The notes under the pieces are model-generated. The model searched no databases. It was not told the DNA's origin and saw nothing but the letters and a program-made list of their open reading frames with translations. DNA of 64,000 nucleotides from Acetobacteraceae bacterium (lineage in GTDB: Bacteria; Pseudomonadota; Alphaproteobacteria; Acetobacterales; Acetobacteraceae): NCBI GenBank assembly GCA_965276755.1, contig OZ255625.1, positions 1,020,784 to 1,084,783 of the forward strand. Direction: 5' to 3'. How positions within the stretch are numbered: the first letter of the stretch is position 1; every line of letters begins with the position of its first letter. A program made the translations under genes and the position numbers. This document shows positions 22,973 through 62,936 of this stretch, piece after piece.

Positions 22973-23072
22973 CTGGGGGGAACGTGCCGTTCCCCCCAGA
23001 CCCCCGTCTTCATTTTAGTCCCCGTCTAAACTAATGATGGGGGGTCTGAGGGGGATGGCACATCTCCCCCAG
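22973..23072. repeat. Family A inverted doublet (100 bp)
   Basis: CTGGGGGGAACGTGCCGTTCCCCCCAGACCCCCGTC-linker-GATGGGGGGTCTGAGGGGGATGGCACATCTCCCCCAG. Confidence 0.9.
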
Positions 23073-23421
23073 GTTTTTTTTCGCTCGCCTGCATCACCGC
23101 CAACTCATTCCCGTTCGGGTCCTCAAAGTGAAACCGCCGCCCGCCCGGAAAGGAGAAAATCGGTTTGACAATAATCCCGCCTGCCTCCTCCACCGCGGCC
23201 AGGCACGCCTGCAGATCGTCCACGGAAATCACCGGCAACGGCGCGCGGGTCGCCTCGGCCATATCCGCCTGCAACCCGACATCGACATCGCCCGTCATCG
23301 TGCACGCATAACTCGGCCCGAAGCCGGTCAGCGCCCAGCCGAAAACCTCGGCGTAAAAACTCGCCCCCGCGCCAATATCGGCAGACGGCAATTCGACGAA
23401 CATTACGCGCGGCACCGTCAT
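23026..23421 (-). CDS. VOC/glyoxalase-family protein
   Basis: FVELPSAD, FYAEVFGW, GGRRFHFEDPNGNELAV; the C-terminus runs through the repeat. Confidence 0.88.
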   Translation of the reverse strand: MTVPRVMFVELPSADIGAGASFYAEVFGWALTGFGPSYACTMTGDVDVGLQADMAEATRAPLPVISVDDLQACLAAVEEAGGIIVKPIFSFPGGRRFHFEDPNGNELAVMQASEKKPGGDVPSPSDPPSLV

Positions 23422-23768
23422 TTTTTCTTTCCCTTCTTCGGCGCCGCCGCAAGCTCGGCGGCGCAGCGCACCACCCATTTCCGCAACACACCCGCATCGG
23501 CCAGCATAGCTTCAGGCACAACCACATAACTCTTGCTCTCAGGCTGACCGGCCTCATAGCGCAACCGCGCGGCCCCGGGCACAGCCAACAGTGCCGCATG
23601 CGTCCCGCCCGCGCATTTCAACGCCAGCCCCACATCGGACAATGACGCAAGCGGCTTTCCCTCCGCATACGCCAATATTCCGCCGAACATCGAGCGAAAC
23701 GCCAGCGGCAAATCGGGCGACGCGGCCGCACTCAGTACCACCTTCAACGCATGCGGATCATGTGCCAC
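23418..23768 (-). CDS. TfoX/Sxy-like protein
   Basis: FRSMFGG...LALK, SKSYVVVP motifs. Confidence 0.7.
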   Translation of the reverse strand: MAHDPHALKVVLSAAASPDLPLAFRSMFGGILAYAEGKPLASLSDVGLALKCAGGTHAALLAVPGAARLRYEAGQPESKSYVVVPEAMLADAGVLRKWVVRCAAELAAAPKKGKKK

Positions 23769-23771
23769 CGG

Positions 23772-24356
23772 CTAATCGTATTCGACAGGCTGGGACGGCT
23801 CACATTGCTTGACCGGGTTGGGCCGCGCCACCCGGCTATCCTTGACCCAGCACTCATCGAACACCGAGCAGTAACAAACCCGAACCCTGACGCCGAAGCG
23901 CTTCTTGTTCAAAAGCTCCCATAATCCGGACTGGCTCTGCGGCCCGAACGTGATGAAATCGATCTCATCGCGCGCCGGCAACACGTCGTTGCTCACCTGG
24001 CTCGTCGAAAAATTCGGGGTTTTTGCGCCGCAGCAAATCTGCAACAACTGCTCGAAATTCTTGACAGGCGTGTCTTCGTAAAAAACCTCGAACGTGTCGA
24101 TGCGGGCCGGCCCCACCCCCGTGTTGCGCAGCGCCAGAGTGATCGTTTTCGGCTGCCCGGGCATTTCGTTGCCCGTACTGTAGCTGATATTCGGCCAGGA
24201 ATTAGCCTCCACCAACCTCTCCATCGTCTTGCCGTGATGCACGGCGATGAATATCGACACCGCAGACATCACCACCGCCAGCCCGCCTAGGATGAAATCA
24301 ACGTGGCTGTGTCCGGTCTTGTGGCGGTGTGCCTCGACTTCCGGTCCTTCGATCAC
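23772..24356 (-). CDS. Hypothetical membrane-anchored protein
   Basis: N-terminal TM helix; LRNTGVGPARI and CYCSVFDECW; translationally coupled to putA. Confidence 0.7.
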   Translation of the reverse strand: MIEGPEVEAHRHKTGHSHVDFILGGLAVVMSAVSIFIAVHHGKTMERLVEANSWPNISYSTGNEMPGQPKTITLALRNTGVGPARIDTFEVFYEDTPVKNFEQLLQICCGAKTPNFSTSQVSNDVLPARDEIDFITFGPQSQSGLWELLNKKRFGVRVRVCYCSVFDECWVKDSRVARPNPVKQCEPSQPVEYD

Positions 24357-28496: not shown

Positions 28497-28566
28497 CCGC
28501 GGCTAAGCTGGCGCGGCTAACCTGGCGCGGCTAACCTGGCGCGGCTAACCTGGCGCGGCTAACCTG
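28497..28566. repeat. 14-bp tandem repeat, 5 units
   Basis: GCGCGGCTAACCTG x4 perfect (28511-28566) plus one imperfect unit (28497-28510). Confidence 0.95.
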
Positions 28567-28593
28567 GCCTTGACGCTTGGATGACAAACTGAG

Positions 28594-29826: not shown

Positions 29827-30251
29827 GCGGCGAGCAGTTCAACGTCGAAGATCAGTGTCGCACCAGGTGGGATGACCCCGCCGGCACCGCGATTGCCATA
29901 GGCCAGATCGGGTGGAATGATCAACGTGCGCTTGCCGCCGATATGCATGGTGGCCAGGCCCTCGTCCCAGCCCTTGATGACGCGGCCCTGTCCCAGCGCG
30001 AACTTGATCGGTTCGTTGCGGTCGAACGATGAGTCGAATTTTGCGCCCTTCTTGCCATCGACGTAGAGCCAGCCTGTGTAATTGACGCTGACGGTCTGGC
30101 CGGCCTTGGGCTCGGGGCCGGTGCCTGGGGACGTGTCGATGATGCGCAGGCCGGAGGGTGTTGTTGTTTCGGCGGCGGATGCGGACATGGTGGTGCTTCC
30201 TATCCAGGATGTGGCAAATAGCGTTAGAATTATGGCGCGAAATGTCGGCAT
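29820..30251 (-). CDS. FKBP-type peptidyl-prolyl isomerase
   Basis: [38 protein letters not shown] motifs. Confidence 0.95.
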
Positions 30252-30269
30252 AGAAACCTCCTAACTGAA

Positions 30270-30306
30270 GACGGGGGGTCTGGGGGGAATGGCACATTCC
30301 CCCCAG
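30270..30306. repeat. Family A half
   Basis: GACGGGGGGTCTGGGGGGAATGGCACATTCCCCCCAG. Confidence 0.9.
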
Positions 30307-30309
30307 TTC

Positions 30310-31575
30310 TTATCCTTTAAGTTTAATCAACCTGTGCTGCTTGCGTCCCGCAGAAAGCTTTGCGGGAAGATCGCTTTGCGTGATCTGCCGCGCTTCATCG
30401 CTGATCGTCTCACCGTTCAGCCGTGCCCCGCCGCCGCGGATAAGACGGCGCGCTTCACCATTGCTGCCGGTCAGGCCGGATTGCGTGAGCAGACGGATCA
30501 GAGGAATGCCGCTGACAGCATCATCTTTTGTAACCTCCAAGGTTTGCAGGCCGGCAAATCCACTGGCCACTATCGTGTCTGATTCGGCCGCGGCATGAAG
30601 TGCGCCGAAAACGACGGAGGCTGTGGCCGCGGCTTGTTCGGCCGCCTCATCACCGTGCAGAAGCCTGGTCGCCTCGTGCGCGAGCGTCTTCTTGGCTTCG
30701 TTGATGTCCGCACCATCAAGCTTTTCGAGACGTATGATTTCGTCCAGCGGCAATTCGGTAAAGAGGCGGAGAAAGCGGCCGACATCCGCGTCCTCGCTAT
30801 TGCGCCAGAACTGCCAATATTCGTTGGGTGGCAGGCGCTCCGCGTTCAACCACACCGCACCCCTCGCGGTCTTGCCCATTTTCGCACCGGAGGCCGTGGT
30901 GATCAGCGCTGTCGTCAGGCCGAAACTCTGCGCGCCATCGGTGCGGCGGATGAGATCGATGCCGGAGACAATGTTGCCCCACTGGTCCGAGCCGCCCATT
31001 TGCAGGCGCACGTTTTGGCGGCGGAAAAGCTCGCGGAAATCGTAGCTTTGAGAAATCATATAATTGAATTCGAGAAACGTCAGCGGCTGCTCACGATCAA
31101 GGCGCAGGCGCACGCTGTCCATGGTCAGCATGCGGTTGATCGTGAAATGCGGACCCACTTCGCGCAGCAGCTCGATGTAGCCGAGGCGGTCCAACCAGTC
31201 GGCGTTGTTGACCATGATGGCGCCGTCGGGGCCATCGTTAAAGTCGAGGTAATGGGCAAAGGCGCGGCGGCAGCCTGCCATGTTCGCGGCGATCGTCTCA
31301 TCGGTCAGCATCTGGCGGGTTTCGTCCTTGCCGGACGGATCGCCGATGCGCGTCGTGCCGCCCCCCATCAGGACCACCGGGCGCTGGCCGTGCTTTTGCC
31401 ACAGGCGCAGCATCATGATCGAGACGAGGTTACCGACATGCAGGCTGTCGGCGGTGCAATCGTAACCCACATAGGCCGATAGCGTGCCGGCATCCAGCGC
31501 TGCGGAGAGGGCGTGTTCATCGGTGCATTGATGGATGAAGCCGCGGGCGGCGGCTTCGGTCAGAAAGGCATGCAT
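30310..31575 (-). CDS. tyrS: Tyrosine--tRNA ligase
   Basis: [31 protein letters not shown] motifs and a C-terminal S4 domain; start [12 protein letters not shown] at 31575. Confidence 0.97.
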
Positions 31576-31609
31576 GGCGCGACTTCGTAGGGGAGCCGCC
31601 AAGTTAAGG

Positions 31610-32335
31610 CTAGGGGTCGGCGGTCGCGAAAGGCTGGGGGACGCGCGCCTTGGGCGGATCGGCGCATGCGCCGGTTTCATCCGCCCAAGCCCCCAGACCC
31701 CCTGTCTTCGGTTTGACCCGGCCAGCCGATACATCCATGCGGCTGACGACCTGCAAGCGGGGTGCGCCGCGGGCGGGACGGTCCAACACGCAGAGCATGC
31801 CCTCGATCTGGCCGGCGGTGAGTTCGGGCATGTCCAGCAGTCCCAGCGCGGCCGTGCCGTGCTCGCCGGCGAGCATGTCGCCCAGCCCGGCGCGCGTGCC
31901 CTCGATGGGGCCGAGCTGGTCGGGCGGCAGGTGATGGCGTTCGCGCAGGAGCAGCAGATGCGCCTCGGTGTGGCCCCCAAGGACGGTGCGGGTGGCGGCG
32001 AGATAGGCGGTGCGGGCGGCCGGCTGGCGCTCGGCGATGGGCACGTCGCGCACGGCCCGGCCGATGGCGCTGCTGATGGACAGCAGGTGGCGGACCAGGA
32101 TTTCGCCCAGCAGGCAGTCCAGATCCGGGAAGTAGCGGCGGATCGTGCCGGGCGCCATGCCCAGCGCGGTGGCGAGGTCGGACAGCCTGATGCCGGCGCG
32201 GCCGTGATTGACCAGCACGCGCCGGCCCGCGGCGAGAATGACCTCCTGCCGGTCGAGCTCGCGCTGGGAGAGGCGCGGGCGGGCGCCGGGAATGTCCTCG
32301 ATTTCGGCGCGCAGGAGGCGGGGTGCGGTAGGCAT
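31610..32335 (-). CDS. TetR/AcrR-like transcriptional regulator
   Basis: [14 protein letters not shown]...[21 protein letters not shown]; the C-terminal tail is read through a repeat. Confidence 0.75.
31634..31706. repeat. Family A variant with an internal hairpin insertion
   Basis: CTGGGGGAC...CTTGGGCGGATCGGCGCATGCGCCGGTTTCATCCGCCCAAG...CCCCAGACCCCCTGTC. Confidence 0.75.
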
Positions 32336-32514
32336 GGCGGGAGTGTAGTGAACATAGAGGGAACATGGCAAGCGAAAACTCGGCGCCGCTGCTGCGCTGA
32401 CATCCATGGTCCGCAATGAAATATAAGCCGCTATGTGGCCGCCCGGCGGTACGTTATTGAAGCAATTCGAATGAGTAACACCAATCAGCAGAAAGTTTGA
32501 CTCTCTGAATAAGG

Positions 32515-32617
32515 TTGGGGGAGATGTGCCATCCCCCCCCAAACCCCCCGTCATTATTTAAGACGAGGCGCAAAAAACTCGACGGGGGGTCTGGGGGGGA
32601 TGGCACATCTCCCCCAG
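32515..32617. repeat. Family A inverted doublet
   Basis: TTGGGGGAGATGTGCCATCCCCCCCCAAACCCCCCGTC-28 nt-GACGGGGGGTCTGGGGGGGATGGCACATCTCCCCCAG. Confidence 0.92.
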
Positions 32618-32682
32618 TCTTTCTCACCTAAATTATGTGTCAGTTTCAACCCTGACCGGTATAACAAGGTGACACTCACGCG

Positions 32683-33495
32683 ATGACGACACGGTTCCGC
32701 AAAATGCACGGCGCCGGCAACGACTTCGTCGTCATCGACGCGCGCGCGACACCGCTCCCGCTCACGCCCTCCCGCATCGCAGCCCTGGCCGACCGCCGCA
32801 CCGGCATCGGCTGCGACCAGTTCATCACCCTGCTCCCCGCCGCGCCCCCAGCCGACCTCTTCATGCGCATCCACAATCCGGACGGCACAGAGTCCGCCAC
32901 CTGCGGCAACGCCACACGCTGCGTCGCCGCCATCCTGCACGAAGAAACCGGCCGCACGATTTTCACCATTCAAACCCTGACCGCGCTGCTCCCGGCTGAA
33001 ATCACCTCGGGCGGCATCAACGTGGACATGGGCCCCCCGCGCCTGGACTGGGCGCAAATCCCCCTCGCCCACGAGGCGGACACGCTGCACCTGCCCATCC
33101 CCGGCGCCCCCGCGGCGGCCAGCATGGGCAACCCCCACGCCACCCTTTTCGTCCCGGACACTGGCGTCGCCGAAACCCAAGGCCCAGCCCTGGAACACCA
33201 CACCATCTTCCCCGCAGGCGCGAACATCGGCTTCGCACAAATCCTCTCCCCCGCCCACATCCGCCTGCGTGTCTATGAACGCGGCGCCGGCCTGACCCGC
33301 GCCTGCGGCAGCGGCGCCTGTGCCGCCCTGGTCAATGCCCACCGCCGAGGGCTGACCACCCGCGCCGCCACGCTCACGCTTGATGACGGCACCCTGCACA
33401 TCGAGTGGCGCGCCTCAGATGACCACGTCATCATGACAGGCCCTGCCGCCACCGCCTTCCAAGGCAGCGTCGATCTCTCTACCTACCCAGCATGA
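32683..33495 (+). CDS. dapF: Diaminopimelate epimerase
   Basis: [36 protein letters not shown] motifs. Confidence 0.96.
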
Positions 33496-34715
33496 CCACC
33501 CAGATCCTGACCTTCGGCTGCCGCCTCAACACCTATGAAAGCGAGGTCATCCGCGCCCACACCACCACGCTCACGGACACGATCGTCATCAACACCTGCG
33601 CGGTTACCGCCGAAGCCGAACGCCAGGCCCGCCAGGCCATCCGCCGCGCCGCGCGCGAACACCCCGACGCCCGCATCGTCGTCACCGGCTGCGCCGCCCA
33701 GATCGCGCCGGACAATTGGGCCGCCCTGCCCGGCGTCACACGCGTCATCGGCAACACCGAAAAGCTGCAGGCCGCGACCTGGGCCGCCGACAGCCCCTCC
33801 ATGGTCGGCGACATCATGGCCGCGCGCGAAACGGCCGCCCACCTGGTCACTGAGTTCGCCGGCCGCGCCCGCGCCTTTGTCCAGGTCCAGCAAGGCTGCG
33901 ACCACCGCTGCACCTTCTGCGTCATCCCCTACGGCCGCGGCCCCAACCGCTCCGTCCCGATCGGCGGCATCGTCGATCAGGCCCGCGCGCTGGTGGCCGC
34001 GGGCTTCCTCGAAATCGTGCTCAGCGGGGTGGACATCACCAGCTACGGCCCCGACCTGCCCGGCGCCCCGCGCCTCGGCCAGATGGTCCGCCGCCTGCTG
34101 GCGCTGGTGCCCGAACTGCCCCGCCTGCGCCTCTCCAGCCTGGACCCCGCCGCCATCGACGACGACCTATGGCGCGTGCTGGCCGAGGAACCCCGCCTGC
34201 TGCCCCATCTGCACCTCTCGCTGCAGGCGGCCGATGACATGGTGCTCAAGCGCATGAAGCGTCGCCACAGCCGGGCAGAAGCGGCCGCGGCGATTACGCG
34301 CGCCCGCACGCTGCGCCCGGGCATCGCAATAGGTGCCGATCTGATCGCGGGCTTTCCCACCGAAACAGACGCGCAAGCGGCCAACACGCTGGCCTTCGTG
34401 GACGAGCACGCGCTGCCCTACCTGCACGTCTTCCCCTATAGCGAGCGCGCCGGTACGCCCGCCGCCCGCATGCCGGTGGTGCCTGTGGCGCTCCGCCGTG
34501 AACGCGCCGCGCGGCTGCGCGAGGCCGGCGCGCAAAACGCCCAGGCCTTTCACAACGCCCTGATCGGCAGGCACGCCGCCATCCTGGCCGAGACCGAATT
34601 TGCCGGTCACACCGAACATTTCGCACCCGTGCGCATCGCCGGCCGCCCGGGCCACCTGATGCGCGCGCGCATTACGGGTGCGGATTCGGGCGGCGTTACC
34701 GCGATCGCCGCGTAA
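33492..34715 (+). CDS. mtaB: tRNA threonylcarbamoyladenosine methylthiotransferase
   Basis: [25 protein letters not shown] radical-SAM motif; dapF-mtaB-ftsY synteny. Confidence 0.92.
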
Positions 34716-35629
34716 TGGCCGGCTTTTTTTCGCGCCTGAAGGAAGGGCTCAGCCGCAGCACGCAGAAACTCTCGACCGGCATTACCGCGGCGCTGACGCA
34801 TCTGCGCCTGGATGACGCGGCGCTGGACATGCTCGAAGAAGCGCTGATCGGCGCAGACCTGGGCCCCGCGGTGGCCGCGCGCATCATCGCCAATTTCCGC
34901 CGCAGCCGTTTCGGCAGCAGCGTGACGCAAGCCGAGGTCCGCGCGGCGCTGGCCGAGGAAATTGCCGCCATCCTGGCCCCTGTCGCACATCCCTTCGTGC
35001 TGGACGCGCGGCGCCACCCGCATGTCGTGCTGGTCGTTGGCGTGAATGGCGTCGGCAAGACCACCACCATCGGCAAGATGGCTCTGCAATACAAGCAAGA
35101 CGGCAAACGCGCCATCATGGTCGCCGGCGACACCTTCCGCGCCGCCGCGGTTGAACAATTGCAAATCTGGGGCGAGCGCACCGGCGCGCCCGTCATCGCC
35201 GGGCCGCCGAACGCGGACTCCGCGGGCCTGGCCTTCGACGCACTCACCCGCGCCACCAACGAGCACGCCGACGTGCTGCTGATCGACACCGCCGGCCGCC
35301 TGCACAACAAGGCGGCGCTGATGGACGAGCTCGCCAAGATTATTCGTGTGCTGCGCAAGAAGGATCCCGACGCGCCGCATTCCGTGCTGCTCGTGCTGGA
35401 CGCCACCACCGGCCAGAACGCCGTGCAGCAGGTGCGCGTGTTTCGCGAACTCGTGGCCGTGACTGGGTTGATCGTGACGAAACTCGACGGCAGCGCGCGC
35501 GGCGGCATTGTCGTGGCGCTGGCCGAGGAATTTGGCCTGCCGGTGCATGCGGTGGGTTTTGGCGAGCGCGCCGAGGACCTCAAGCCGTTCGATGCGCTGG
35601 ATTTCGCGCGGGGGTTGACTGAGGTGTAG
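34715..35629 (+). CDS. ftsY: Signal recognition particle receptor
   Basis: GVNGVGKTTT, DTFRAAA, DTAGR, TKLDGSARGG motifs. Confidence 0.96.
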   Translation: MAGFFSRLKEGLSRSTQKLSTGITAALTHLRLDDAALDMLEEALIGADLGPAVAARIIANFRRSRFGSSVTQAEVRAALAEEIAAILAPVAHPFVLDARRHPHVVLVVGVNGVGKTTTIGKMALQYKQDGKRAIMVAGDTFRAAAVEQLQIWGERTGAPVIAGPPNADSAGLAFDALTRATNEHADVLLIDTAGRLHNKAALMDELAKIIRVLRKKDPDAPHSVLLVLDATTGQNAVQQVRVFRELVAVTGLIVTKLDGSARGGIVVALAEEFGLPVHAVGFGERAEDLKPFDALDFARGLTEV

Positions 35630-35656
35630 GCATTGGCGTGCCTGGTGCCGCACTGC

Positions 35657-35694
35657 TTGACATGTGGAGCACATGCACCCATGTTGTGCACATG
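35657..35694 (+). promoter_or_regulatory. TA operon promoter with overlapping palindromic operators
   Basis: TTGACA (35657-62)-N17-CATGTT; palindromes CATGTG-GAG-CACATG and CATGT-TGTGC-ACATG; the ATG sits at the predicted start site. Confidence 0.65.
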
Positions 35695-35922
35695 TCGACG
35701 ATGATTCAGATACGCCATGTGCCTGACGATCTACACCGCGAGCTGAAGTCCCGCGCGGCTTTGGCCGGCATGTCGCTGTCTGACTACCTGTTGAATGAGG
35801 TCCGCCAAATGGCCGAGCGGCCGACGGTTGCGCAATTGCGCGCCAGATTGGCCCAGCAGCCGACAGTAACCTTGTCCATGTCGTCAGCTGAAGCTGTACG
35901 TAGAGAACGCGATAGCCGTTGA
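35692..35922 (+). CDS. FitA-like ribbon-helix-helix antitoxin
   Basis: IQIRHVPDDLHRELKSRAA...SLSDY; overlaps the toxin start (TTGA). Confidence 0.88.
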   Translation: MSTMIQIRHVPDDLHRELKSRAALAGMSLSDYLLNEVRQMAERPTVAQLRARLAQQPTVTLSMSSAEAVRRERDSR

Positions 35923-36311
35923 TCGTCGTTGATGCATCGGCGCTCATCGACGTTGTCCTTCGAACTGACACCGCGACCCTTGTTGAAAGGAGGTTGCTCG
36001 ACTCCGGCCAAACGGTGCATGCTCCGCACCTGATAGATGCCGAAATCGCTCAGGTTTGCCGCCGCTTTGAAAGCATTGGCGAGATCGGACACGCGCAAGG
36101 TCTTACCGCGCTATCCAACCTTGTGGCCTTTCCGATGCAGCGCTACCCGCACGAACCGCTGCTTCCGCGGGTTTGGGCACTACGGCACAACCTGACAGCT
36201 TATGACGCATTATACGTGGCACTTGCAGAACTTCTCGATGCCACGTTGCTCACTCGTGACCGGCGGCTTGCCGCCGCGCCGGTGCATCGTGCACGTGTCG
36301 AAGTGATTTGA
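35919..36311 (+). CDS. vapC: VapC-family PIN-domain toxin
   Basis: IVVDASAL, APHLIDAEI, LTAYDALYVALA, LLTRDRRL motifs. Confidence 0.92.
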   Translation: MIVVDASALIDVVLRTDTATLVERRLLDSGQTVHAPHLIDAEIAQVCRRFESIGEIGHAQGLTALSNLVAFPMQRYPHEPLLPRVWALRHNLTAYDALYVALAELLDATLLTRDRRLAAAPVHRARVEVI

Positions 36312-36389
36312 AAGACAAGATCGGGGGAGCAGTGCCTGCCCCCAGGGCAATCGAGTGAAGTGAAAGAGCCGAATTAAAGTGAGAAAAAG

Positions 36390-36489
36390 CTGGGGGAGAT
36401 GTGCCATCCCCCCCAGACCCCCCGTCGATTATAGAGCCTCGCCTTACATAATGACGGGGGGTCTGGGGGGAATGGCACATTCCCCCCAG
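36390..36489. repeat. Family A inverted doublet
   Basis: Both halves intact; linker GATTATAGAGCCTCGCCTTACATAAT. Confidence 0.92.
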
Positions 36490-36500
36490 CCTTTTTTGCT

Positions 36501-37703
<1,203 letters not shown>

Positions 37704-37724
37704 CTGCGTATCCTACTAGAGAAT

Positions 37725-37761
37725 GACGGGGGGTTTGGGGGGGATGGCACATCCCCCCCAA
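37725..37761. repeat. Family A half
   Basis: GACGGGGGGTTTGGGGGGGATGGCACATCCCCCCCAA. Confidence 0.88.
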
Positions 37762-37772
37762 TACTTTCTTTT

Positions 37773-38747
37773 TCAGCCTTGGATCAGCACGATCTTGCCC
37801 TGCGCGCGCCGTTCCATGACATCGCCCAACGCCTCGCGCACCCGGTCCAGCGGATAAGCGCCGCCCACATGCGGCCGCAACTTCCCCTCCGTAAACCACG
37901 CCATCAATTGCGCGGTGTTCTGCGCGTGGCGTGCCGGATCGCGCTGCGTAAAGGCGCCCCAGAACACGCCGATCGCCTCGCCCTCTCGCAGAAGCAAAAG
38001 GTTCAGCGCCAGCTTGGGGATTTCGCCATTGGCAAAGCCGACAACCAGTAGCCGCCCGCCCCACGCCATGCCGCGCACGGCTGCTTCCGTCATCGGGCCG
38101 CCGACGGGATCGTACACCACGTCAACGCCCCCAGGCACCAGGCGCTTCAGCTCGGACTTCAAATCAGCCGTGCCGTAATTGATGCCGATCTCCGCGCCAT
38201 GCACACGCGCCAACGCCAGCTTTTCATCGCTCGATGCCGCGGCAATGACGCGCAGCCCCATCGCCGCGCCGATTTCCACCGCGGCCAGCCCCACGCCGCC
38301 GGCCGCACCCAACACCAAAAGCGTCTCACCCGCGCGGGTGCGCGCCTTGTCTGCCAGCGCGTGCATGGACGTGCCATAGACCAGCATGAACCCGCCGGCG
38401 GTGGCAAAATCCATCGCATCGGGAATGGGCAGCGTGCGGTCCTGCGCCGCCACCACGCGTTCGGCAAACCCGCCCATGCCGCACAACGAAACCACGCGCT
38501 GTCCCACCGACAGCGCGCGCACATCAGCGCCCACCGCCGCCACAAGCCCGGCGACTTCGGTGCCCGGCGTGAAAGGCCGCGGCGGCTTTACCTGATAGTC
38601 GCCCCGCACCATCAACCCATCGGGGAAATTCACGCCGGCCGCGCGCACATCGATCAGCACCTCGCCGGGTCCGGGCACGGGGTCAGCCTGGTCTTCCACC
38701 ACCAGATTTTCGATCGGCCCGAATTCGTGGCAGATAACAGCGCGCAC
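37773..38747 (-). CDS. NADPH:quinone oxidoreductase (zeta-crystallin family)
   Basis: GVNFPD, PFTPGTEVAG, GAAGGVG, VVYDPVGG motifs; GTG start inferred. Confidence 0.9.
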   Translation of the reverse strand: MRAVICHEFGPIENLVVEDQADPVPGPGEVLIDVRAAGVNFPDGLMVRGDYQVKPPRPFTPGTEVAGLVAAVGADVRALSVGQRVVSLCGMGGFAERVVAAQDRTLPIPDAMDFATAGGFMLVYGTSMHALADKARTRAGETLLVLGAAGGVGLAAVEIGAAMGLRVIAAASSDEKLALARVHGAEIGINYGTADLKSELKRLVPGGVDVVYDPVGGPMTEAAVRGMAWGGRLLVVGFANGEIPKLALNLLLLREGEAIGVFWGAFTQRDPARHAQNTAQLMAWFTEGKLRPHVGGAYPLDRVREALGDVMERRAQGKIVLIQG

Positions 38748-38827
38748 CCTGCTTCCCCGCGTCATTGTTTGCGACGGCAACATGCGGCAGGCCACACCGC
38801 ATGGCTAGACCACCCCCCAAAGGACCA

Positions 38828-39634
38828 ATGACCCTGGCCTTCCTGACCGAACCCGCTCCCACCTACGGCATGCCCGAGCAGATCACCCCCCGCCTGCGTC
38901 GCCTGGTCGCCCCCAATCCCGGCTACATGACCTATCACGGCACCAACACCTGGCTTCTGGACACCGGTTCCGCCACGCTTGTCATAGACCCCGGCCCCGA
39001 TCATGCGGCCCACGTTAGCGCAATCCTGAAAGCCGCGCCCACGCCGATCACCACGATCCTGCTGACCCACAGCCATCCCGACCATCTGGGTGCGACCGCC
39101 GCCTTGCGCGCCGCCACGGGTGCTGCCGTGCATGGCTGGCACGCGCCCTGGCAGCCCGGCTTTACCCCGGATCATCCGATCGCCGACGGCCAGACGATTG
39201 CCGGCCTGACCGCAATCCATACGCCCGGCCATGCCTCGGACCATCTGTGTTTCGCGTGGGAGGATGGCGGCCTGTTCTCGGGCGATCACGTCATGAGCTG
39301 GAACACCAGCATCGTCAGCCCGCCGGATGGGGACATGGCCGCCTACCTGGCCAGCCTGCGTCTGCTGATGGCGCGCGAGGATAGCGTTTTTTACTGCGGC
39401 CACGGACCCGTGCTGCCAAACCCTGGCCCACTGATGCGCGCGATGCTCGGCCACCGGCTGGCGCGCGAGGCGGCCATCGTTGCGGCACTGGCCGATGGCC
39501 TGACAACGCCTGAGGCCATCGCGGACCGGCTTTATGCCGATCAGCCGCAGCACACGCGGGCAGCCGCTGTGCGTAGCGTGCTGGCGCATTTGATTAAGTT
39601 ACGAAATGAAAAGGTTGGGGGAGATGTGCCTTGA
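38828..39634 (+). CDS. MBL-fold metallo-hydrolase
   Basis: THSHPDH, HTPGH, SGDH, GHG motifs; the last residues are encoded by a repeat. Confidence 0.9.
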   Translation: MTLAFLTEPAPTYGMPEQITPRLRRLVAPNPGYMTYHGTNTWLLDTGSATLVIDPGPDHAAHVSAILKAAPTPITTILLTHSHPDHLGATAALRAATGAAVHGWHAPWQPGFTPDHPIADGQTIAGLTAIHTPGHASDHLCFAWEDGGLFSGDHVMSWNTSIVSPPDGDMAAYLASLRLLMAREDSVFYCGHGPVLPNPGPLMRAMLGHRLAREAAIVAALADGLTTPEAIADRLYADQPQHTRAAAVRSVLAHLIKLRNEKVGGDVP

Positions 39635-39751
39635 GCGGGTCGGCGCATGCGCCGACTGATTCCGCTCAAGCCCCCAAACCCCCCGTCATTTGTTTGAGTC
39701 CGCGCTAAAATAATGACGGGGGGTTTGGGGGGGCAGGCACTGCTCCCCCAA
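39615..39751. repeat. Family A doublet; left half carries the hairpin insertion
   Basis: CTTGAGCGGGTCGGCGCATGCGCCGACTGATTCCGCTCAAG in the left half; GCAG/CTGC stem in the right half. Confidence 0.88.
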
Positions 39752-39758
39752 CTTTTCT

Positions 39759-43830: not shown

Positions 43831-43867
43831 TTGGGGGAGATGTGCCATCCCCCCCAAACCCCCCGTC
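43831..43867. repeat. Family A half
   Basis: TTGGGGGAGATGTGCCATCCCCCCCAAACCCCCCGTC. Confidence 0.9.
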
Positions 43868-46351: not shown

Positions 46352-46452
46352 CTGGGGGGAATGTGCCATTCCCCCCAGACCCCCCGTCATCAGTTGAGAC
46401 GAGATCTTGAAAATAGACGGGGGGTCTGGGGGGGAAGGCACATCTCCCCCAG
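46352..46452. repeat. Family A inverted doublet
   Basis: Linker ATCAGTTGAGACGAGATCTTGAAAATA; lies between co-oriented efflux genes. Confidence 0.92.
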
Positions 46453-46468: not shown

Positions 46469-47926
46469 TCATGACCGCGCCTCCGGCGCACCCGCGGGCA
46501 CGGACCATCCGCCGCCCAGCGCCTTGTAGAGATTCACCAGCGAGAGAAAGCGCGTCACCCGCACCTGGGCCAAAGCGTCCTGATCGTTGAACAGAGTCGT
46601 CTCCGTGTTCAGCACGGTCACGATATCGACCGTGCCGGCCAGCAATTGCGCGCGCGCAATGGTCGCCGATTGCTGGGCGGTGCGCACCGCCTCGGCCTCC
46701 AGCGCCTCCTGATCGGCGGCAAAGCTGGTGGCCGTCAGCCCGGTCTCCACATCGCTCAACGCCTGGATGACCGCCTTGGTATAATCGGCCGCCAGCTCTG
46801 CAAAGCGCCCCTTCGCCTCGCCCAGCGTGCCCGATTTCAGCCCATTGTCGAAGATCGTCTGCGTCAACTGGCTGGCAAGGCTGGCAATCACCGTGCCTGG
46901 CCCGGTAATCGTGGAAAGTGCGAGGCTGGACAACCCCCCCGAGGCGGTCAGCGTCAGGCTGGGGAAGAAGGCGGCATAATCCTGGCGCACAGTCTGGTTC
47001 TGCCCAATCAGCTGCGCCTCGGCGTAGGCCACATCGGGCCGGCGGCGCAGGATGGTGGCGGGCAGGCCGGGTGCCACGGCAGGCAGGCGCAGATCGACCA
47101 GGTGCACTTCGCCCAAGGCAATGCGTTCGGGCGCCTCGCCCACCAGGATCGCCAGCGCGATCACCTCCTGGCGGAACTGGCTTTCCAGTGCCGGCAAATT
47201 GGCGCGCTCGCCGGCCACCAGCGCCTCCTGCTGGCTGACATCGAGCGCATCGGCCGTGCCCACGCTCAGGCGCGCACGAAAGGCGTCCAACACGGCGGCG
47301 GCATCGTGCAGATTGTTCTGGGCGATGCGCAGCCGGTCCCGGTAGCCCAGCGCCTGAAAATAGGTGGTGGCGATCGAGGAGATGGTGGTCAGCCACACCG
47401 TCTGCGCGTCGTAGCGCGAGCCGCGCGCCAGGGCCACGGCGGCGCGGTAGGCGTCCAAATTCATGCCCCAGAAATCGACCTCGTAGGAGGCGTTGAGCTC
47501 GGCTGTGTAGAGGCGTGTCTCGGTGTAGCGGTGCCCGCCTTGCAGACCGGTGAGAAATTGCGCCGACTGGCCGCTGGCGCGGCTGCCCGTGCCGGTGCGC
47601 TGCCAGCTCTGGTTGCCGGTGCCGGTCACGCCCGGCAGCAGCGGGCTGCCGGCCACGCGCGCGGCCTGGTCGGCCTGCACCACGCGCGCGGCGGCCGCAC
47701 GCACGTCCGGACTGCCGATACGCGCCAGCTCGATCAGACGGTCGAGCTCGGGGGCCTTAAAGCCGCGCCACCACGCGATGTCGGGCGGGGCGGCCGGCGG
47801 CTGGGCGGGCGAGGAGTAGGCCAGCGGCACATCCAACGCAGGCCGGTGATAGTGCGGGCCGACGCCGCATCCAGCCAGGCTTGTGCAGGCAAGGCACCCC
47901 GCCAGCAGGGCGCGGGGGGTGGTCAT
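46469..47926 (-). CDS. NodT/OprM-family outer-membrane efflux lipoprotein
   Basis: Lipobox LAGC, WWRGF, YEVDFWG, RRPDV, LYKALGGGW motifs. Confidence 0.93.
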   Translation of the reverse strand: MTTPRALLAGCLACTSLAGCGVGPHYHRPALDVPLAYSSPAQPPAAPPDIAWWRGFKAPELDRLIELARIGSPDVRAAAARVVQADQAARVAGSPLLPGVTGTGNQSWQRTGTGSRASGQSAQFLTGLQGGHRYTETRLYTAELNASYEVDFWGMNLDAYRAAVALARGSRYDAQTVWLTTISSIATTYFQALGYRDRLRIAQNNLHDAAAVLDAFRARLSVGTADALDVSQQEALVAGERANLPALESQFRQEVIALAILVGEAPERIALGEVHLVDLRLPAVAPGLPATILRRRPDVAYAEAQLIGQNQTVRQDYAAFFPSLTLTASGGLSSLALSTITGPGTVIASLASQLTQTIFDNGLKSGTLGEAKGRFAELAADYTKAVIQALSDVETGLTATSFAADQEALEAEAVRTAQQSATIARAQLLAGTVDIVTVLNTETTLFNDQDALAQVRVTRFLSLVNLYKALGGGWSVPAGAPEARS

Positions 47927-47996
47927 GTGGGCGGCATGTCTGGCGGCGGTTCCGTGACGGGCAGTAGTCCAGATGGACTTGCCGCAGGAAGAAAGT

Positions 47997-48137
47997 AAAG
48001 GGAAGGCCTTCTTTTTTGAAAAAAAGAAGCAAAAAACTTTTGTCACTTTATGTCACGGCTCCTGTTTGAAGTGTCTCGTGGTCCAAACAGATAAAAGTCT
48101 TTTTGCTTCTTTTTCTTCAGAAAAAGAAGAACCTTGC
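47997..48137. repeat. Inverted pair of family B repeats
   Basis: CTTCTTTTTTGAAAAAAAGAAGCAAAAAACTTTTGTC ... ATAAAAGTCTTTTTGCTTCTTTTTCTTCAGAAAAAGAAG. Confidence 0.87.
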
Positions 48138-48168
48138 CCTTTTGTGTGCGCAGTGAAACTCTGCCGCA

Positions 48169-49383
48169 ATGCGCCCGCTCTCCCGCCGCGCCGCCCTGAC
48201 CGGCAGCCTGTGCCTGCCTTCGCTGTCCGCCCGCGCCGCGGCCGGGCTGACGATCGGTGTCCTGACCGACCTCTCCGGCCCGTATAGCGACATTGCCGGC
48301 GCCGGCTCGATTGCCTGCGTGCGCCAGGCGGTGCGCGAAGCGGCCCAGGCCGGTCTGCCCGCGGCCACCATCATCAGCGCGGACCATCGCAACGATCCCG
48401 CCGCCGGTGCCGCCATTGCGCGGCAATGGTATGCATCGGGCGTCGATCTGATCATCGATGTGCCCAATTCGGCCGTGGCGCTGGCCGTGGCTGCGGTGGC
48501 GCGCCAGGCCAACCGCGCCTACATCAATTGCGGCGCCGGCAGCACGGCGCTGACCGGCGCGCAATGCGCGCCCACAACAATCCACTGGTCGTACGACACG
48601 CACATGCTGGCGCGCTCCACAGGCGGGGCGCTGACGGCGCATGGCGGCAGCACGTGGTTTTTCGTCACACCCGATTACGCCTTCGGGCATGAATTGCAGG
48701 CGCAGACAAGCGCGCAGGTGCAGCAGGCGGGCGGGCGAGTCTCGGGTGCGGCGATCTATCCTTTTCCGGCAACCCGCGATTTCCGGCCTTTTCTGCGCCA
48801 GGCAGCGCAAAGCGGCGCGCAGGTGCTCGGATTGGCCAATGCCGGCACCGATGTCAGCACGTGCGTGTCTCAAGCGCGCACGGAAGGTATGACGGAAAAT
48901 CTGCGCGTGGCGTGCCTGCTGATGCAGATCGCCGACGTGCACAGGCTGGGATTGGAGTCGGCACAAGGCCTGATGCTGACAGAGAGTTTCTACTGGGATT
49001 TAAATGATCGCACGCGCGCCTTTACGCAGCGATTGCTGGCCGCCGAACCGGGCCTGCATCGGCCGGATATGATCCAGGCCGGGTGCTATGCTGGCGCGCT
49101 GCATTTCCTCAAGGCGGTGGGCGCGCTTGGTGCGGCGGGCGCGCGCGGCGATGGCGCGGCGGTTGTTGCGCGCATGAAGGCGGTCGGCACGGATGACGAC
49201 GCTTTTGGCGGGTGTCGCATACGCCATGATGGGCGCGTAATGGTTTCGGCGCTGCTGTTCGAGGTGAAGTCGCCTGATGAAAGCGGCGGTGATTGGGATT
49301 ATTACAGGTTGGTTTCGACAGTGGGGCCTGACGAGGCCTTTGCGCCGGAGGCGCAGGGCTTGTGCGTGATGGCGCGTGGTTGA
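48169..49383 (+). CDS. ABC transporter substrate-binding protein (LivJ-like)
   Basis: IGVLTDLSGPYS, ADHRNDP, TWFFVTPDYAFG, FYWDLND motifs. Confidence 0.9.
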   Translation: MRPLSRRAALTGSLCLPSLSARAAAGLTIGVLTDLSGPYSDIAGAGSIACVRQAVREAAQAGLPAATIISADHRNDPAAGAAIARQWYASGVDLIIDVPNSAVALAVAAVARQANRAYINCGAGSTALTGAQCAPTTIHWSYDTHMLARSTGGALTAHGGSTWFFVTPDYAFGHELQAQTSAQVQQAGGRVSGAAIYPFPATRDFRPFLRQAAQSGAQVLGLANAGTDVSTCVSQARTEGMTENLRVACLLMQIADVHRLGLESAQGLMLTESFYWDLNDRTRAFTQRLLAAEPGLHRPDMIQAGCYAGALHFLKAVGALGAAGARGDGAAVVARMKAVGTDDDAFGGCRIRHDGRVMVSALLFEVKSPDESGGDWDYYRLVSTVGPDEAFAPEAQGLCVMARG

Positions 49384-49727
49384 TGCGCTACTTGAATTTG
49401 CTTCTCGCGTGTGCAAGCGGGATTTCAGGTTGCGCCCAGCGCCATCCGGAATCCCCACCGCCTGCAACCACTTCGGCAATGACGGCACCACTGGCGACGC
49501 GCTCTCAAGTGGCTGCGACCGTCACGGTAGATTGCATTATCGAGACCACCGGAATTCCAGATTCGTGTCGCATTATCAGTAATAGCGGCCCTCCTGCTTA
49601 CGCCGCACGCGTCATGGCTTGGCTGACGGGCCCGAACCCGCCTCGCTATACGCCTGCACAGCGGCACGGGACCACTGCACGAGAGGACCACCGTTGGACA
49701 GTACAGTTTAAGCCTTCCTCAAATTGA
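49383..49727 (+). CDS. Hypothetical lipoprotein, TonB-C-terminal-like
   Basis: Lipobox-like ISGC; V.VDC.IETTG...CRII. Confidence 0.5.
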   Translation: MRYLNLLLACASGISGCAQRHPESPPPATTSAMTAPLATRSQVAATVTVDCIIETTGIPDSCRIISNSGPPAYAARVMAWLTGPNPPRYTPAQRHGTTAREDHRWTVQFKPSSN

Positions 49728-49803
49728 GGTGGTCGGTCTCCACCGATAACGATAACGGGCTGCCGTGCAGAATCCGCCTCAGTGGCCTGTCATGTGTTCC
49801 TGC

Positions 49804-50064
49804 CTAGACGGCTTGAACCGCCGTGCGGGAACGGGTCTGGTCGCCTCGTCCAGCTAGCAAGCCATCAATTGAAATATCCTCATCCAAAGCTTCCCAATGC
49901 AGCCCGCGTGTGCTGATCCTCGCCTGCTGGCGTTGCCGGGCCGAGCCGTGCAGCAAGCGCGGGAACCAGGCGAGCGGAACACCCAGGGTGCGTCCGTCCG
50001 AAAGCTCGATCCACATGCTGTCCTCGTCAAATCGGACGGCATTAGCCCTCACCACAGAAGTCAT
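49804..50064 (-). CDS. DUF2442-domain protein (antitoxin-like)
   Basis: LSDGRTLGVPLAWFPRL...GLHWEALDEDISIDGLL. Confidence 0.88.
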   Translation of the reverse strand: MTSVVRANAVRFDEDSMWIELSDGRTLGVPLAWFPRLLHGSARQRQQARISTRGLHWEALDEDISIDGLLAGRGDQTRSRTAVQAV

Positions 50065-51758: not shown

Positions 51759-51858
51759 CTGGGGGGACCAAGCCGGTCCCCCCAGACCCCCCGTCGATTG
51801 TAGGACTTCGTTCTAAATAGTGACGGGGGGTTTGGGGGGGATGGCTCATCCCCCCCAA
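51759..51858. repeat. Family A inverted doublet
   Basis: GGACCAAGCCGGTCC stem variant plus GATGGCTCATC variant; linker GATTGTAGGACTTCGTTCTAAATAGT. Confidence 0.9.
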
Positions 51859-55209: not shown

Positions 55210-55257
55210 GAAAGAAGGAAGGACTTCTTTTTTGAAAAAAGAAGCAAAAAACTTTTG
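55210..55257. repeat. Family B repeat
   Basis: AAGAAGGAAGGACTTCTTTTTTGAAAAAAGAAGCAAAAAACTTTTG. Confidence 0.87.
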
Positions 55258-55269
55258 CAAATTCGCGCC

Positions 55270-58629: not shown

Positions 58630-58695
58630 CTGGAGCAGCAGTGCTTGCCCCCCAGACCACGGTCATCAGTTTAGTCGATGCCTGAACTGATGACC
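58630..58695. repeat. Degenerate family A element with its linker hairpin
   Basis: GCAGTGCTTGCCCCCCAGACCACGGTC-ATCAGTTTAGTCGATGCCTGAACTGAT-GACC; 11-bp perfect inverted arms. Confidence 0.65.
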
Positions 58696-58696
58696 T

Positions 58697-59596
58697 TCAA
58701 CTTGTCTTTCCAAACGCCTCCAGCGCCCGCAGCACGATCACCGCACCAGCCTCCTGCACGAAGTGCCCGGCATCTTCCAGTTCCAGCGGCGGCGGCAAAC
58801 CGCGTATATCCCGGGCCAGCGCCCGCATGGCAGGCGGCCCCAGCACAGGGTCCTTCATCCCGATCGCCATGAAACTCCGCCCGCGCCACTCTGAGCGCCA
58901 CCAGGCGCGCGCCTCTCGTGACAATTCGGCACCCTCCGCGTCCGGCCGGTCGGGCACCAGATTGGGAAAGCGCCGCACGCCAGCCTTGTAGCGCGCATCC
59001 GGAAAAGGCGCCGCATAAGCTGCCGCTTCCTCGGCCGATAGCGCCGGCACGCTGCGCGCCATCAGCGCGGCTATGTCCATGTCAGGGTGGCTGTTATTGA
59101 AAGCGCGCCAGGCAAGGAAACCCTCGCCCAGCGGCGCCTCGCCCGTAGCCAGCGCGGTGTTCATGACCAGCAGGCGCGAAAAGGCGCCGGGCAATGCCAT
59201 GGGCAGGGTCAGGCCCAGCAGGCCGCCCCAGTCCTGGCAGACAAGCGTGGCATCGCGCAGCCCATGGTGGCGCACGAAATCCAGCAGCGACGTGCGGTGG
59301 AAGCCGAACGTGTAAACCCCCGCCTCCTCCGGCTTGTCTGACCGGCCGAATCCGAACAAATCCGGCGCCAGCACGCGCACACCCGCGGCCAGAAAGGCGG
59401 GGATCATCTTGCGGTAGAGGTAGCTCCATGTCGGCTGGCCATGCAGGCACAGAACCACCGGCGCGTCCGCCGGCCCCTCGTCGAGGTAATGCATGCGCAA
59501 GCTGCCCGAGCCGGGCAGATCGCTCACATAGCGGGGCGACCATGGGTAGCCAGGCAGATGGGCAAAGCTTTCGTCTGGCGTTCTGAGCGCTTGCAT
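58697..59596 (-). CDS. Haloalkane dehalogenase
   Basis: RTPDESF, HGQPTWSYLYRKMI, FGFGRSDKP, QDWGG, GHFVQE motifs (DhlA-like). Confidence 0.88.
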   Translation of the reverse strand: MQALRTPDESFAHLPGYPWSPRYVSDLPGSGSLRMHYLDEGPADAPVVLCLHGQPTWSYLYRKMIPAFLAAGVRVLAPDLFGFGRSDKPEEAGVYTFGFHRTSLLDFVRHHGLRDATLVCQDWGGLLGLTLPMALPGAFSRLLVMNTALATGEAPLGEGFLAWRAFNNSHPDMDIAALMARSVPALSAEEAAAYAAPFPDARYKAGVRRFPNLVPDRPDAEGAELSREARAWWRSEWRGRSFMAIGMKDPVLGPPAMRALARDIRGLPPPLELEDAGHFVQEAGAVIVLRALEAFGKTS

Positions 59597-62259: not shown

Positions 62260-62358
62260 CTGGGGGAGATGTGCCATCCCCCCCAGACCCCCCGTCATCA
62301 GTTAGGCAAGGCTCTATAATCGACGGGGGGTCTGGGGGGGATGGCACATCTCCCCCAG
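62260..62358. repeat. Family A inverted doublet inside the atp operon
   Basis: Linker ATCAGTTAGGCAAGGCTCTATAATC; both halves near consensus. Confidence 0.93.
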
Positions 62359-62394
62359 TTTTTGCCTAATCATCCGGCTACCTGAGAGACGACC

Positions 62395-62892
62395 ATGCAC
62401 CGCACCCTCGCCAATCCCGAATTCTGGGTCCTCGTCGCCTTCGTCATCTTCTTCGTCCTGTTCGGGCGGCGGCTATGGGCGGTGGTGGCCGGCATGCTGG
62501 ACGGCCGCGCGACCACAATCCGTGCCGAGCTCGATGAAGCCGCACGCCTGCGCGCCGAAGCCGAGGCGATGCTGCGCCGCGCACAGGCCGACCGCGAAGC
62601 AGCCCTCGCCGAGGCGCGTGACGTGCTCACCCGCAGCCACGCCGAAGCCGCGCGCGTGACACGCGAGGCCGAGGCCGAGGCGGCGGCCGCCGCGCGCCGG
62701 CGCGAGCAGATGGCGCTGGATCGAATCGCGGCGGCCGAAAAGGCCGTGGTGGTCGAGGTGCGCCAGATGGCGGCAGAGCTGGCGGTGCAGGCGGCGCGCG
62801 AGGTGATCGCGGGCACGCTTTCGGCCGAGCAGGATGGCGCGCTGGTGGATGAGGCAATTGCCGGGCTGCCTCGGGCTTTGCGGGCTGCGTAG
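62395..62892 (+). CDS. atpF: ATP synthase F0 subunit b
   Basis: PEFWVLVAFVIF, LDGRA..IRAELDEA motifs. Confidence 0.92.
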   Translation: MHRTLANPEFWVLVAFVIFFVLFGRRLWAVVAGMLDGRATTIRAELDEAARLRAEAEAMLRRAQADREAALAEARDVLTRSHAEAARVTREAEAEAAAAARRREQMALDRIAAAEKAVVVEVRQMAAELAVQAAREVIAGTLSAEQDGALVDEAIAGLPRALRAA

Positions 62893-62899
62893 GAAAGAA

Positions 62900-62936
62900 T
62901 TGGGGGGACCGAGCCGGTCCCCCCAAACCCCCCGTC
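62900..62936. repeat. Family A half (GACCG/CGGTC variant)
   Basis: TTGGGGGGACCGAGCCGGTCCCCCCAAACCCCCCGTC; overlaps the stop codon of the convergent VOC gene. Confidence 0.88.

Follow-up and report, generated by a model that had tools for sequence, protein, structure and literature searches.

Two kinds of dispersed bacterial repeat come closest to the element described here. In the REPIN-RAYT systems of Pseudomonas fluorescens and the bacterial interspersed mosaic elements (BIMEs) of Escherichia coli (Bertels & Rainey 2011, PMC3116915), a short, G/C-rich imperfect hairpin with an unpaired conserved end motif (a repetitive extragenic palindromic sequence, REP) occurs both singly and as two inverted units, which are separated by a short spacer, form one long fold and replicate as a unit. 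Hundreds of extragenic copies lie just 3' of genes; the master sequences are restricted to lineages, copy number varies between relatives, and no target duplication is produced. The CGTC-tagged REPs of the alpha-proteobacteria (Di Nocera, De Gregorio & Rocco 2013, PMC3733652), which are reported to be missing from Acetobacteraceae, end in an unpaired CGTC followed by AT, often form dimers, reside after open reading frames (ORFs) and between convergent or co-directional genes, and have no associated transposase. We found the features named for both systems, with the qualification that the CGTC does not abut the stem, in a host of the same class as that of the CGTC REPs, in Family A, an abundant palindromic repeat present in a stretch of 64,000 nucleotides (hereafter the window) of an Acetobacteraceae genome (assembly GCA_965276755.1, contig OZ255625.1, positions 1,020,784 to 1,084,783).

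Since at least 2013 it has been asked which enzyme spreads REP-like repeats where there is no RAYT (PMC3733652). Family A represents a clean case: the genome is complete (3.77 Mb) and holds about 550 sites, there are clear signs that copying went on after speciation, sister species have as few as 0-8 copies, and hairpin and tail are sharply conserved. In our judgement it is probably a non-autonomous mobile element of the REP/REPIN type, whose doublet form is copied whole and which may have taken on an additional role as a terminator or 3'-end signal. Its main interest lies in the clear evidence for copying in genomes without those enzymes so far linked to such repeats that were searched for.

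Structure and copying of the Family A unit

The source genome (single contig, complete, 3.77 Mb, 64% G+C; nearest public relatives, metagenome-assembled genomes of Acetobacteraceae) is designated G000, genomes G001-G004 belong to the same genus and G089 to a second one; coordinates refer to the window unless marked as genome. Family A halves, i.e. single hairpins with their tail, number 555 in G000 by a strict pattern, 704 by a 17-nt tail motif and about 900 by a tolerant regular expression, 676 of the latter being of canonical length. Resolved into sites, these give 224 true singles and about 330 doublets, of which 223 are strict (tail-to-tail) and about 110 have one degenerate partner; the sites, about 550 in all, are distributed evenly around the chromosome. 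The total of about 55.6 kb corresponds to 1.47% of the genome and to approximately 10% of its non-coding DNA, taken as the remainder left by a crude gene caller based on ORFs and codon bias.

Each half has the layout (A-A-R-R) Y-T-G5-7 - inner stem - T/A-G-C - inner stem' - C5-7-A-R - ACCCCCCGTC, with 12 bp in the stem, 3 nt in the loop and, past the hairpin, the unpaired tail ARACCCCCCGTC. The last four letters of the tail are CGTC in most copies, with 8 unpaired nucleotides between them and the stem. In 537 copies of canonical length, 11 of the 12 stem pairs are Watson-Crick or G-U in 98-100% of cases; the outermost pair is C-G in 337 and T-A in 186, and pairs 9-11 vary (G-C/A-T/C-G; A-T/C-G/G-C/T-A; T-A/A-T/C-G, respectively). 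Changes on both sides of the stem were found at 7 of the 12 pairs (81 distinct variants), giving a covariation score of 0.323 against 0.130 in shuffles, none of 500 of which reached it, and at most 0.089 for slid partners. The one pair outside those eleven (8-20) is an A·C mismatch in 374 of the 537 copies, read as a G·T/G·U wobble on the opposite strand, and the same mismatch is kept in variants that prevail, or seem to be the commonest, in other species: AGCAG/CTGC (G003), AGACG/CGTC (G002), AGCCG/CGGC and others (G089). The Family A stem is thus a specific imperfect hairpin, and not merely a stable one. A first-pass annotation of the window, made from the sequence alone, had proposed selection on structure; the compensatory changes support this, and it is better stated as selection on that specific imperfect hairpin, mismatch included.

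True singles carry about 10 further conserved nucleotides (ATTATTTWRG) past the tail, after which information content falls to zero, while on the other side palindromy and conservation stop approximately 5 nt beyond the stem (A at position -4 in 89% of copies). Since conservation ends on both sides, the single stands as a unit in its own right, about 55 nt long and with sharp limits.

In doublets the two tails face each other across a spacer, 25-27 nt long in 198 of the 223 strict doublets, with a peak at 26 nt. Its consensus, GATTTTTGGGCCTCGTCTTAAATAAT, has a defined polarity and occurs in both directions (F 117, R 90), the centre CCTCG being kept in 70-90% of copies. The idea that the spacer is itself a covarying palindrome was rejected: pairing between its mirror positions is below that of shuffles, owing to its asymmetry and its presence in both polarities. 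Mean pairwise identity is 90% for halves and 63% for spacers. Folded as single-stranded RNA, doublets form one hairpin of about 50 bp (-88 to -95 kcal/mol, z about -13).

Diverged as they are, the spacers have a tree-like structure. In 60 of 120 doublets, against some 7 predicted if columns were independent, the nearest-neighbour spacer agrees at 24-26 of 26 positions. At distant loci with identical spacers the whole doublet is identical, and similarity is lost exactly outside YTGGGGG...CCCCCAR. These pairs, matching across the doublet and diverging right at its ends, provide direct evidence that the doublet is copied whole to new places and is the unit of descent and of copying.

The 64-kb window holds about 22 halves, i.e. 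seven inverted doublets, singles, and decayed or tail-less copies. The tail ACCCCCCGTC, with at most one mismatch allowed, occurs 23 times, as against 6.4 +/- 2.3 times in dinucleotide-shuffled sequences, none of 100 of which reached 23. The copies are as follows.

3405..3441, plus strand: decayed single half, 5' arm degraded, CCCCCCAAACCCCCCGTC intact
22973..23072, no strand assigned: doublet of AACG/CGTT and AGATG/CATC halves, tails slightly degenerate (ACCCCCGTC, GATGGGGGGT), starting 10 nt past a TAA stop
30270..30306, minus strand: single half, AATG/CATT variant
31634..31706, plus strand: single half whose hairpin tip holds a nested palindrome of about 40 nt, TTGGGCGG..GGCGCATGCGCC..CCGCCCAAG
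32479..32661, plus strand: composite 183-nt MITE (miniature inverted-repeat transposable element), 'X-type', with ends CACCAATCAG.../...GACCGGTA and TAA direct repeats at 32476-32478 and 32662-32664
32515..32617, no strand assigned: doublet, core of the X-type MITE
36321..36389, plus strand: tail-less Family A hairpin (GGGGGAGCAGTGCCTGCCCCC, 36321-36343) with an 'arm Y' module (AGGGCAATCGAGTGAAG...) that runs into the next doublet
36390..36489, no strand assigned: doublet between convergent genes, both outer hairpins terminator-like
37725..37761, minus strand: single half, G7-ATG/CAT-C7 variant, stem fully paired
39615..39751, no strand assigned: doublet, left half with the nested palindrome of about 40 nt at its tip, right half of the AGCAG/CTGC variant
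43831..43867, plus strand: single half, master variant
46352..46452, no strand assigned: doublet
51759..51858, no strand assigned: doublet of one ACCAAGCCGGT half and one GATGAGCCATC half, spacer GATTGTAGGACTTCGTTCTAAATAGT
58630..58700, plus strand: decayed copy, half and spacer (CCCCCCAGACCACGGTCATCAGTTTAGTCGATGCCTGAACTGATGAC), second hairpin lost
62260..62358, no strand assigned: doublet (homodimer) of two master-variant halves, spacer in reverse polarity
62900..62936, plus strand: single half, ACCG/CGGT variant, AGC loop

The doublet at 36390..36489 may serve as an example of the fold: it forms one hairpin of about 50 bp with a dG of -88 (plus strand) and -95 (minus strand) kcal/mol and z-scores of -12.6 and -13.3, calculated for single-stranded RNA.

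All elements of what the first-pass annotation had read from the window were borne out. The seven doublets were recovered at the positions it gave, its estimate of about 21 halves lies next to our count, and the hairpin, the (T/A)GC triloop and the inner-stem variants that it listed are all present; its linkers of 25-28 nt agree with the genome-wide peak at 26, and the two linkers it considered related (62260 and 36390) are identical in sequence and opposite in orientation. The asymmetric conserved spacer, the near-identical spacers at distant loci and the loss of similarity at the element ends uphold its view of the doublet as the spreading unit. The covariation it noted is significant, with a score above that of all 500 shuffles and 7 of 12 pairs changed on both sides, and insertions differ between related species (see below), so that the outcome which would have spoken against its proposal, i.e. 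neither polymorphism nor covariation, is not the one observed.

Several other repeats were seen in the window. A second, AT-rich palindromic family (CTTCTTTTTTGAAAAAAAGAAG...AAAACTTTTG) lies at 3968-4017, 8854-8895, 14804-14845, 16826-16867, 21325-21440, 47995-48135 and 55211-55260, and often flanks a 1.5-kb insertion sequence (IS) present in 8 copies. At 28498-28568, between two ORFs, the 14-nt unit CGCGGCTAACCTGG is repeated in tandem about five times. A CGTC-tagged palindrome, CGTCATTGCGAGCCGCC TCTT CGGCGGCGTGGCAATCCAAGG, is located at 12373-12413, upstream of a 100-aa ORF, the putative GIY-YIG gene discussed below; it looks like a REP of the classical type.

Distribution among relatives and the search for a mobilising enzyme

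A survey of 401 Acetobacteraceae genomes representing 143 genera, performed with the 17-nt tail motif, showed that Family A is confined to two of the genera sampled. Within the genus of the source genome the counts are 704 (G000), 230 (G003), 8 (G002), 4 (G001) and 0 (G004); the second genus has 15 in G089 and 1-2 in two other genomes. Outside these carriers the motif occurs at most once per genome, with at most 1-2 matches in any of the other 141 genera. A covariance model built from the stem variants recovered at least 39 copies in G089, scoring being capped at 42 per genome, with stray weak matches alone in other genera.

The dominant stem variant differs by species: AGATG in G000, AGCAG in G003 (apparently the commonest among the matches listed) and AGACG in G002 (the commonest of its seven). 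Low-copy genomes contain mainly singles with many compensatory stem variants, the tail and lead-in remaining unchanged. The exact 36-nt master sequence is common to genomes whose genes are just 75-87% identical.

Occupancy of individual sites was compared between G000 and its closest relative, G003 (about 85-87% identical), using a 400-kb sample of the latter and those orthologous gaps that could be paired. Most occupied sites proved to be species-specific, filled gaps measuring 130-190 nt and empty ones 23-90 nt, which agrees with the polymorphic insertions that the mobile-element proposal of the first-pass annotation called for. Two Family A sites are common to both genomes, with halves conserved and flanking intergenic DNA that cannot be aligned. 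In G003 contig C9, at approximately 1520-1640 (compared with genome 2224455-2224517), the 3' coding end of a gene appears to contain a half that carries the nested 40-nt palindrome; translation would continue across the element and stop at the TGA that G000 also uses, giving what appears from the alignment to be an in-frame intragenic insertion, reminiscent of the Rickettsia palindromic elements, which are known for such insertions.

The first-pass annotation had noted the absence of a RAYT gene from the window. A six-frame search with hidden Markov models detected no PF01797 domain (RAYT/IS200 Y1) in G000, G001-G004, G089 or G284, whereas the positive controls were matched; the absence thus extends to the whole genome and to the other carriers. 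Further candidates were examined and rejected. The IS110-type DEDD recombinase (PF01548) is missing from carriers G000, G003 and G089 and present only in G001 and G004, which have few or no copies; the DUF559 nuclease (PF04480) is absent. A putative GIY-YIG gene at 12494-12796 is missing from G003, a genome with at least 230 copies, and therefore does not correlate with Family A. A REPtron-like search for genes bracketed by inverted halves returned 42 tail-inward intervals and 52 one-gene head-inward intervals, too many to discriminate a candidate. Genome self-BLAST revealed no ends like a Family A half among the five main multi-copy IS families. A resemblance to integron attC sites, judged by eye, was also discarded, since GTTAG/CTAAC outer repeats occur in just 21 of 676 copies and in the wrong orientation.

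Direct repeats of 2-5 nt were sought at 625 boundary offsets around 97 stand-alone doublets, and at none of these offsets were they in excess. The lack of target duplication, together with the conserved imperfect hairpin and the conserved single-stranded tail, fits recognition of a folded single strand, by analogy with HUH systems.

Insertions into Family A and rival explanations

Family A hairpins are themselves targets of other mobile DNA. A 1.37-kb IS481-family element (DDE transposase of about 390 aa; rve, rve_3, LZ_Tnp_IS481) occurs in seven copies in the genome. Each of them interrupts the 3-nt loop of a Family A hairpin, the orientation varying, and is accompanied by a duplicated GTG/CAC of 3 bp; the ends of the element come in two alternative sequences (GGTGCTGACCGCCCAC... 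and GTGTTCAAGTGGGCAC...). The copies are:

genome C1:141494-142871
genome C1:185397-186766
genome C1:1696864-1698234
genome C1:1865537-1866916
genome C1:2028323-2029706
genome C1:2386613-2387976
genome C1:2418656-2420022

Two palindromes occupy the hairpin tip. The 18-nt GCTGACGTATACGTCAGC has 95 copies, and those of its flanks that were tabulated consist of Family A arms; the palindrome of about 40 nt listed above (TTGGGCGG..GGCGCATGCGCC..CCGCCCAAG) has at least 39 (window 31650-31690 and 39631-39671). Nested in this way, they give a modular series of 'stacked hairpins'.

Conversely, about 58 Family A hairpins or doublets form the core of the larger X-type MITE, with ends TACCARCC.../...GGYTGGTA (TACCARCCNGCAGAAAGATTGACTCTCA... 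and ...TTGATCATGTGTCAGTYTCAACGCSGRTTGGTA) and flanking 3-bp TAA or TTA direct repeats, target duplication being limited to this composite subset. In one comparison of G003 with G000 such a MITE appears to sit at the TAA stop codon of the upstream gene. Some doublets are bracketed by arm Y (CAGGGCRATCGAGTGAAG..., 53 copies), which makes them a longer inverted repeat (window 36344-36389; genome 3060303, 3514151 and 3079952); in one instance the entire composite is nested in a further Family A hairpin, and some 10 nt of the arm (GGGGGGGATG) are duplicated. Because a single doublet lineage, recognised by its identical spacer, can have differing outer arms or lack them, the arms are not the general mover of Family A. 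Family A has practical consequences for the annotation and the assembly of these Acetobacteraceae: it takes up about a tenth of the non-coding DNA, abuts gene ends, where it can extend or supply stop codons, breaks short-read assemblies and is a hotspot for such insertions.

The location of the copies raises the question of whether they are useful to the host, as bidirectional terminators or blocks to 3' exonucleases whose hairpin is kept uniform by selection. Doublets lie at a median of 9-12 nt from the upstream stop codon or codons, stop triplets are concentrated 2-15 nt upstream of Family A copies, and the stop codon of some genes falls within the tail of the element. Occupied gaps amount to 39% of the convergent, 22% of the co-directional and 16% of the divergent ones; that divergent gaps are filled at all speaks against a 3'-end signal. 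When positions 30001-50000 were scanned with a terminator-like consensus, outer hairpins of Family A, in the tail-first orientation, were the top matches and accounted for all eight with 12 pairs and a 3-nt loop. The hairpin is followed by a pyrimidine/T-rich run (YCTTTY-type), and on the strand with this run the mismatch reads as a G·U wobble, the A·C mismatch being on the other strand; the run, however, is broken by C. It is plausible, judging from these predicted structures, that doublets double as two-way transcription terminators, and a terminator-like hairpin in both directions fits their enrichment between convergent genes. Were this so, Family A would be an example of mobile DNA supplying the terminators of a genome. 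One orthologous gap is filled by a Family A doublet in G003 and by the unrelated AT-rich palindrome in G000, which counts in favour of usefulness to the host. Yet a terminator can do without a fixed sequence, and in Family A the loop, the mismatch and the tail ACCCCCCGTC show conservation from one genus to the other; singles are randomly oriented to the upstream gene; and close relatives manage with 4 copies (G001) or none (G004). We regard a 3'-end function, which is compatible with mobility, as a real possibility that falls somewhat short of probable. Conservation beyond the needs of pairing could also mean that the halves are sites bound by a protein of the chromosome (gyrase, IHF or nucleoid type) or by a structure-specific factor, and are maintained for chromosome organisation. 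The even spread of copies around the chromosome and the binding of gyrase and IHF by E. coli REPs (summarised in PMC3733652) accord with this; sister species holding 0-8 copies do not, since they indicate that the sites are not essential chromosome components, and we consider the proposal very unlikely.

The two remaining rivals concern the origin of the copies. An ordinary MITE, i.e. a deletion derivative of a DDE-type IS moved via its terminal inverted repeats, would account for the X-type composites, whose ends and 3-bp repeats are typical of the IS5/IS1031- or ISAzo13-like elements present in the genome. It would hardly explain the other 500 or so sites, which lack those arms, the stand-alone doublets without target duplication, the lineage that changes or dispenses with its outer arms, or the absence from the genome of any IS with ends like a Family A half, and it appears to us just as improbable as the protein-binding sites. 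A different view is that the copies, left over from an ancient burst, are relics that have outlived their enzyme, and that they are kept uniform by gene conversion over short tracts and templated correction inside the palindrome, with no part played by present function or mobility; Di Nocera et al. (PMC3733652) made the same proposal for CGTC-type REPs. The lack of a candidate enzyme in any carrier tested, the divergence of the spacers and the two sites common to G000 and G003 would suit such relics. Against them stand the species-specificity of most sites and of the dominant variants and pairs of dispersed doublets that are identical in both spacer and halves, which argue for copying after the species split. 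We judge this explanation unlikely, if less so than the two just dismissed.

We thus favour a non-autonomous element of the REP/REPIN type, and its propagation may be pictured as follows. The basic unit, of about 55 nt, comprises the purine-rich A-A-R-R lead-in, the imperfect 12-bp hairpin with its UGC/AGC triloop and A·C mismatch, the tail ARACCCCCCGTC and some 10 nt of ATTATTTWRG; in the genus of G000 two such units, placed tail-to-tail around the 26-nt spacer, form the doublet of about 110 nt that is copied whole to new sites. A trans-acting enzyme would read the imperfect hairpin and the single-stranded tail on extruded or single-stranded DNA, and would copy or move the element without target duplication; it would be neither a RAYT/IS200 Y1 transposase, nor an IS110-type recombinase, nor a DUF559 nuclease. 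New copies survive almost only in tiny gaps just past stop codons, where the outer hairpin and its pyrimidine/T-rich run may add a two-way terminator or a 3'-end RNA-stabilising role.

Several observations weigh against this reading. No mobilising gene was found, PF01797, PF01548 and PF04480 being absent from the carriers and no IS sharing the element ends. Fully identical doublets are a handful only, which weakens the case for present-day activity; the excess conservation of halves over spacers could stem from gene conversion or host selection instead of recognition by an enzyme. Comparison with G003, G001 and G004 yielded no base-precise clean empty site and one nearly clean case (genome 1667735), because the intergenic DNA is too diverged and the nearest genome not close enough. 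Gene positions come from our own caller based on ORFs and codon bias, which is reliable for stops and poor for starts. In co-directional gaps true singles show no orientation preference (55 in the terminator orientation and 43 in the opposite one; doublets, being symmetric, offer no such comparison), spacer polarity is unrelated to gene direction, and neither singles nor doublet polarity show a replichore or strand bias, the last being a weak test in view of oddly asymmetric origin and terminus estimates from GC skew. This lack of any bias of orientation, polarity or replichore weakens the case for singles acting at the RNA level as well as that for an IS200-like mechanism with a lagging-strand bias.

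A more specific proposal is that Family A is the substrate of a new kind of hairpin-specific enzyme acting on single-stranded DNA, neither a Y1 HUH/RAYT nor a DEDD IS110-type protein, common to both carrier genera and reading the A·C stem together with the tail ACCCCCCGTC. This we hold to be doubtful; if true, it would hint at the mover of the 'transposase-less' CGTC-type REPs that are widespread in alpha-proteobacteria.

Family A among described repeat systems

The first-pass annotation had recognised no named family for the repeat, and our searches of Rfam, of the literature (by sequence and by keyword) and of plasmid and phage collections likewise returned no described family that matches it. 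Among other mobile elements, the Correia/NEMIS repeats of Neisseria and other MITEs (PMC10969869) have in common with Family A that they are inverted repeats of about 100-150 bp, found in hundreds of copies beside genes, which can form RNA hairpins and affect neighbouring transcripts. Correia elements, in contrast, have TA target duplications and IS-like terminal repeats, both lacking in stand-alone Family A, where MITE-like behaviour is limited to the X-type composite subset with its TAA/TTA duplications. The use of a repeat hairpin as a specific target, observed here for the IS481-family element, resembles that of ISPpu9, an IS targeting the REPs of P. putida (PMC8450116, PMC12288879); ISPpu9, however, is of the DEDD IS110 type, whereas the element described here has a DDE transposase and generates a 3-bp GTG duplication.

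The differences from CGTC-tagged REPs (PMC3733652) concern several parts of the unit. The Family A stem is 12 bp long and begins with Y-T/A-R followed by G5-7, as compared with 8-9 bp beginning with A/T; the loop is of 3 nt instead of 4-5; the end opposite the tag is A-A-R-R and not a 3-nt CCA-like tail; and the CGTC tag lies 8 nt from the stem instead of abutting it. The dimers are also arranged differently: all 223 Family A doublets have their tags inside (tail-to-tail), whereas CGTC REPs are mostly head-to-head with tags outside, an arrangement of which we found no true example in Family A, as 9 of 10 head-to-head matches to the regular expression were overlaps.

REPINs differ from Family A in having GTAG at the foot of the hairpin, which is absent from the consensus AARR-YTGGGGG..CCCCCAR-ACCCCCCGTC, in a conserved motif that abuts the stem, where that of Family A ends a 10-nt C-rich tail, and in their cognate single-copy RAYT, usually flanked by REPs, which the Family A carriers tested do not possess; the asymmetric, conserved spacer of Family A is likewise unlike that of REPINs. 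Family A is therefore a new sequence family of the REP/REPIN-like type.

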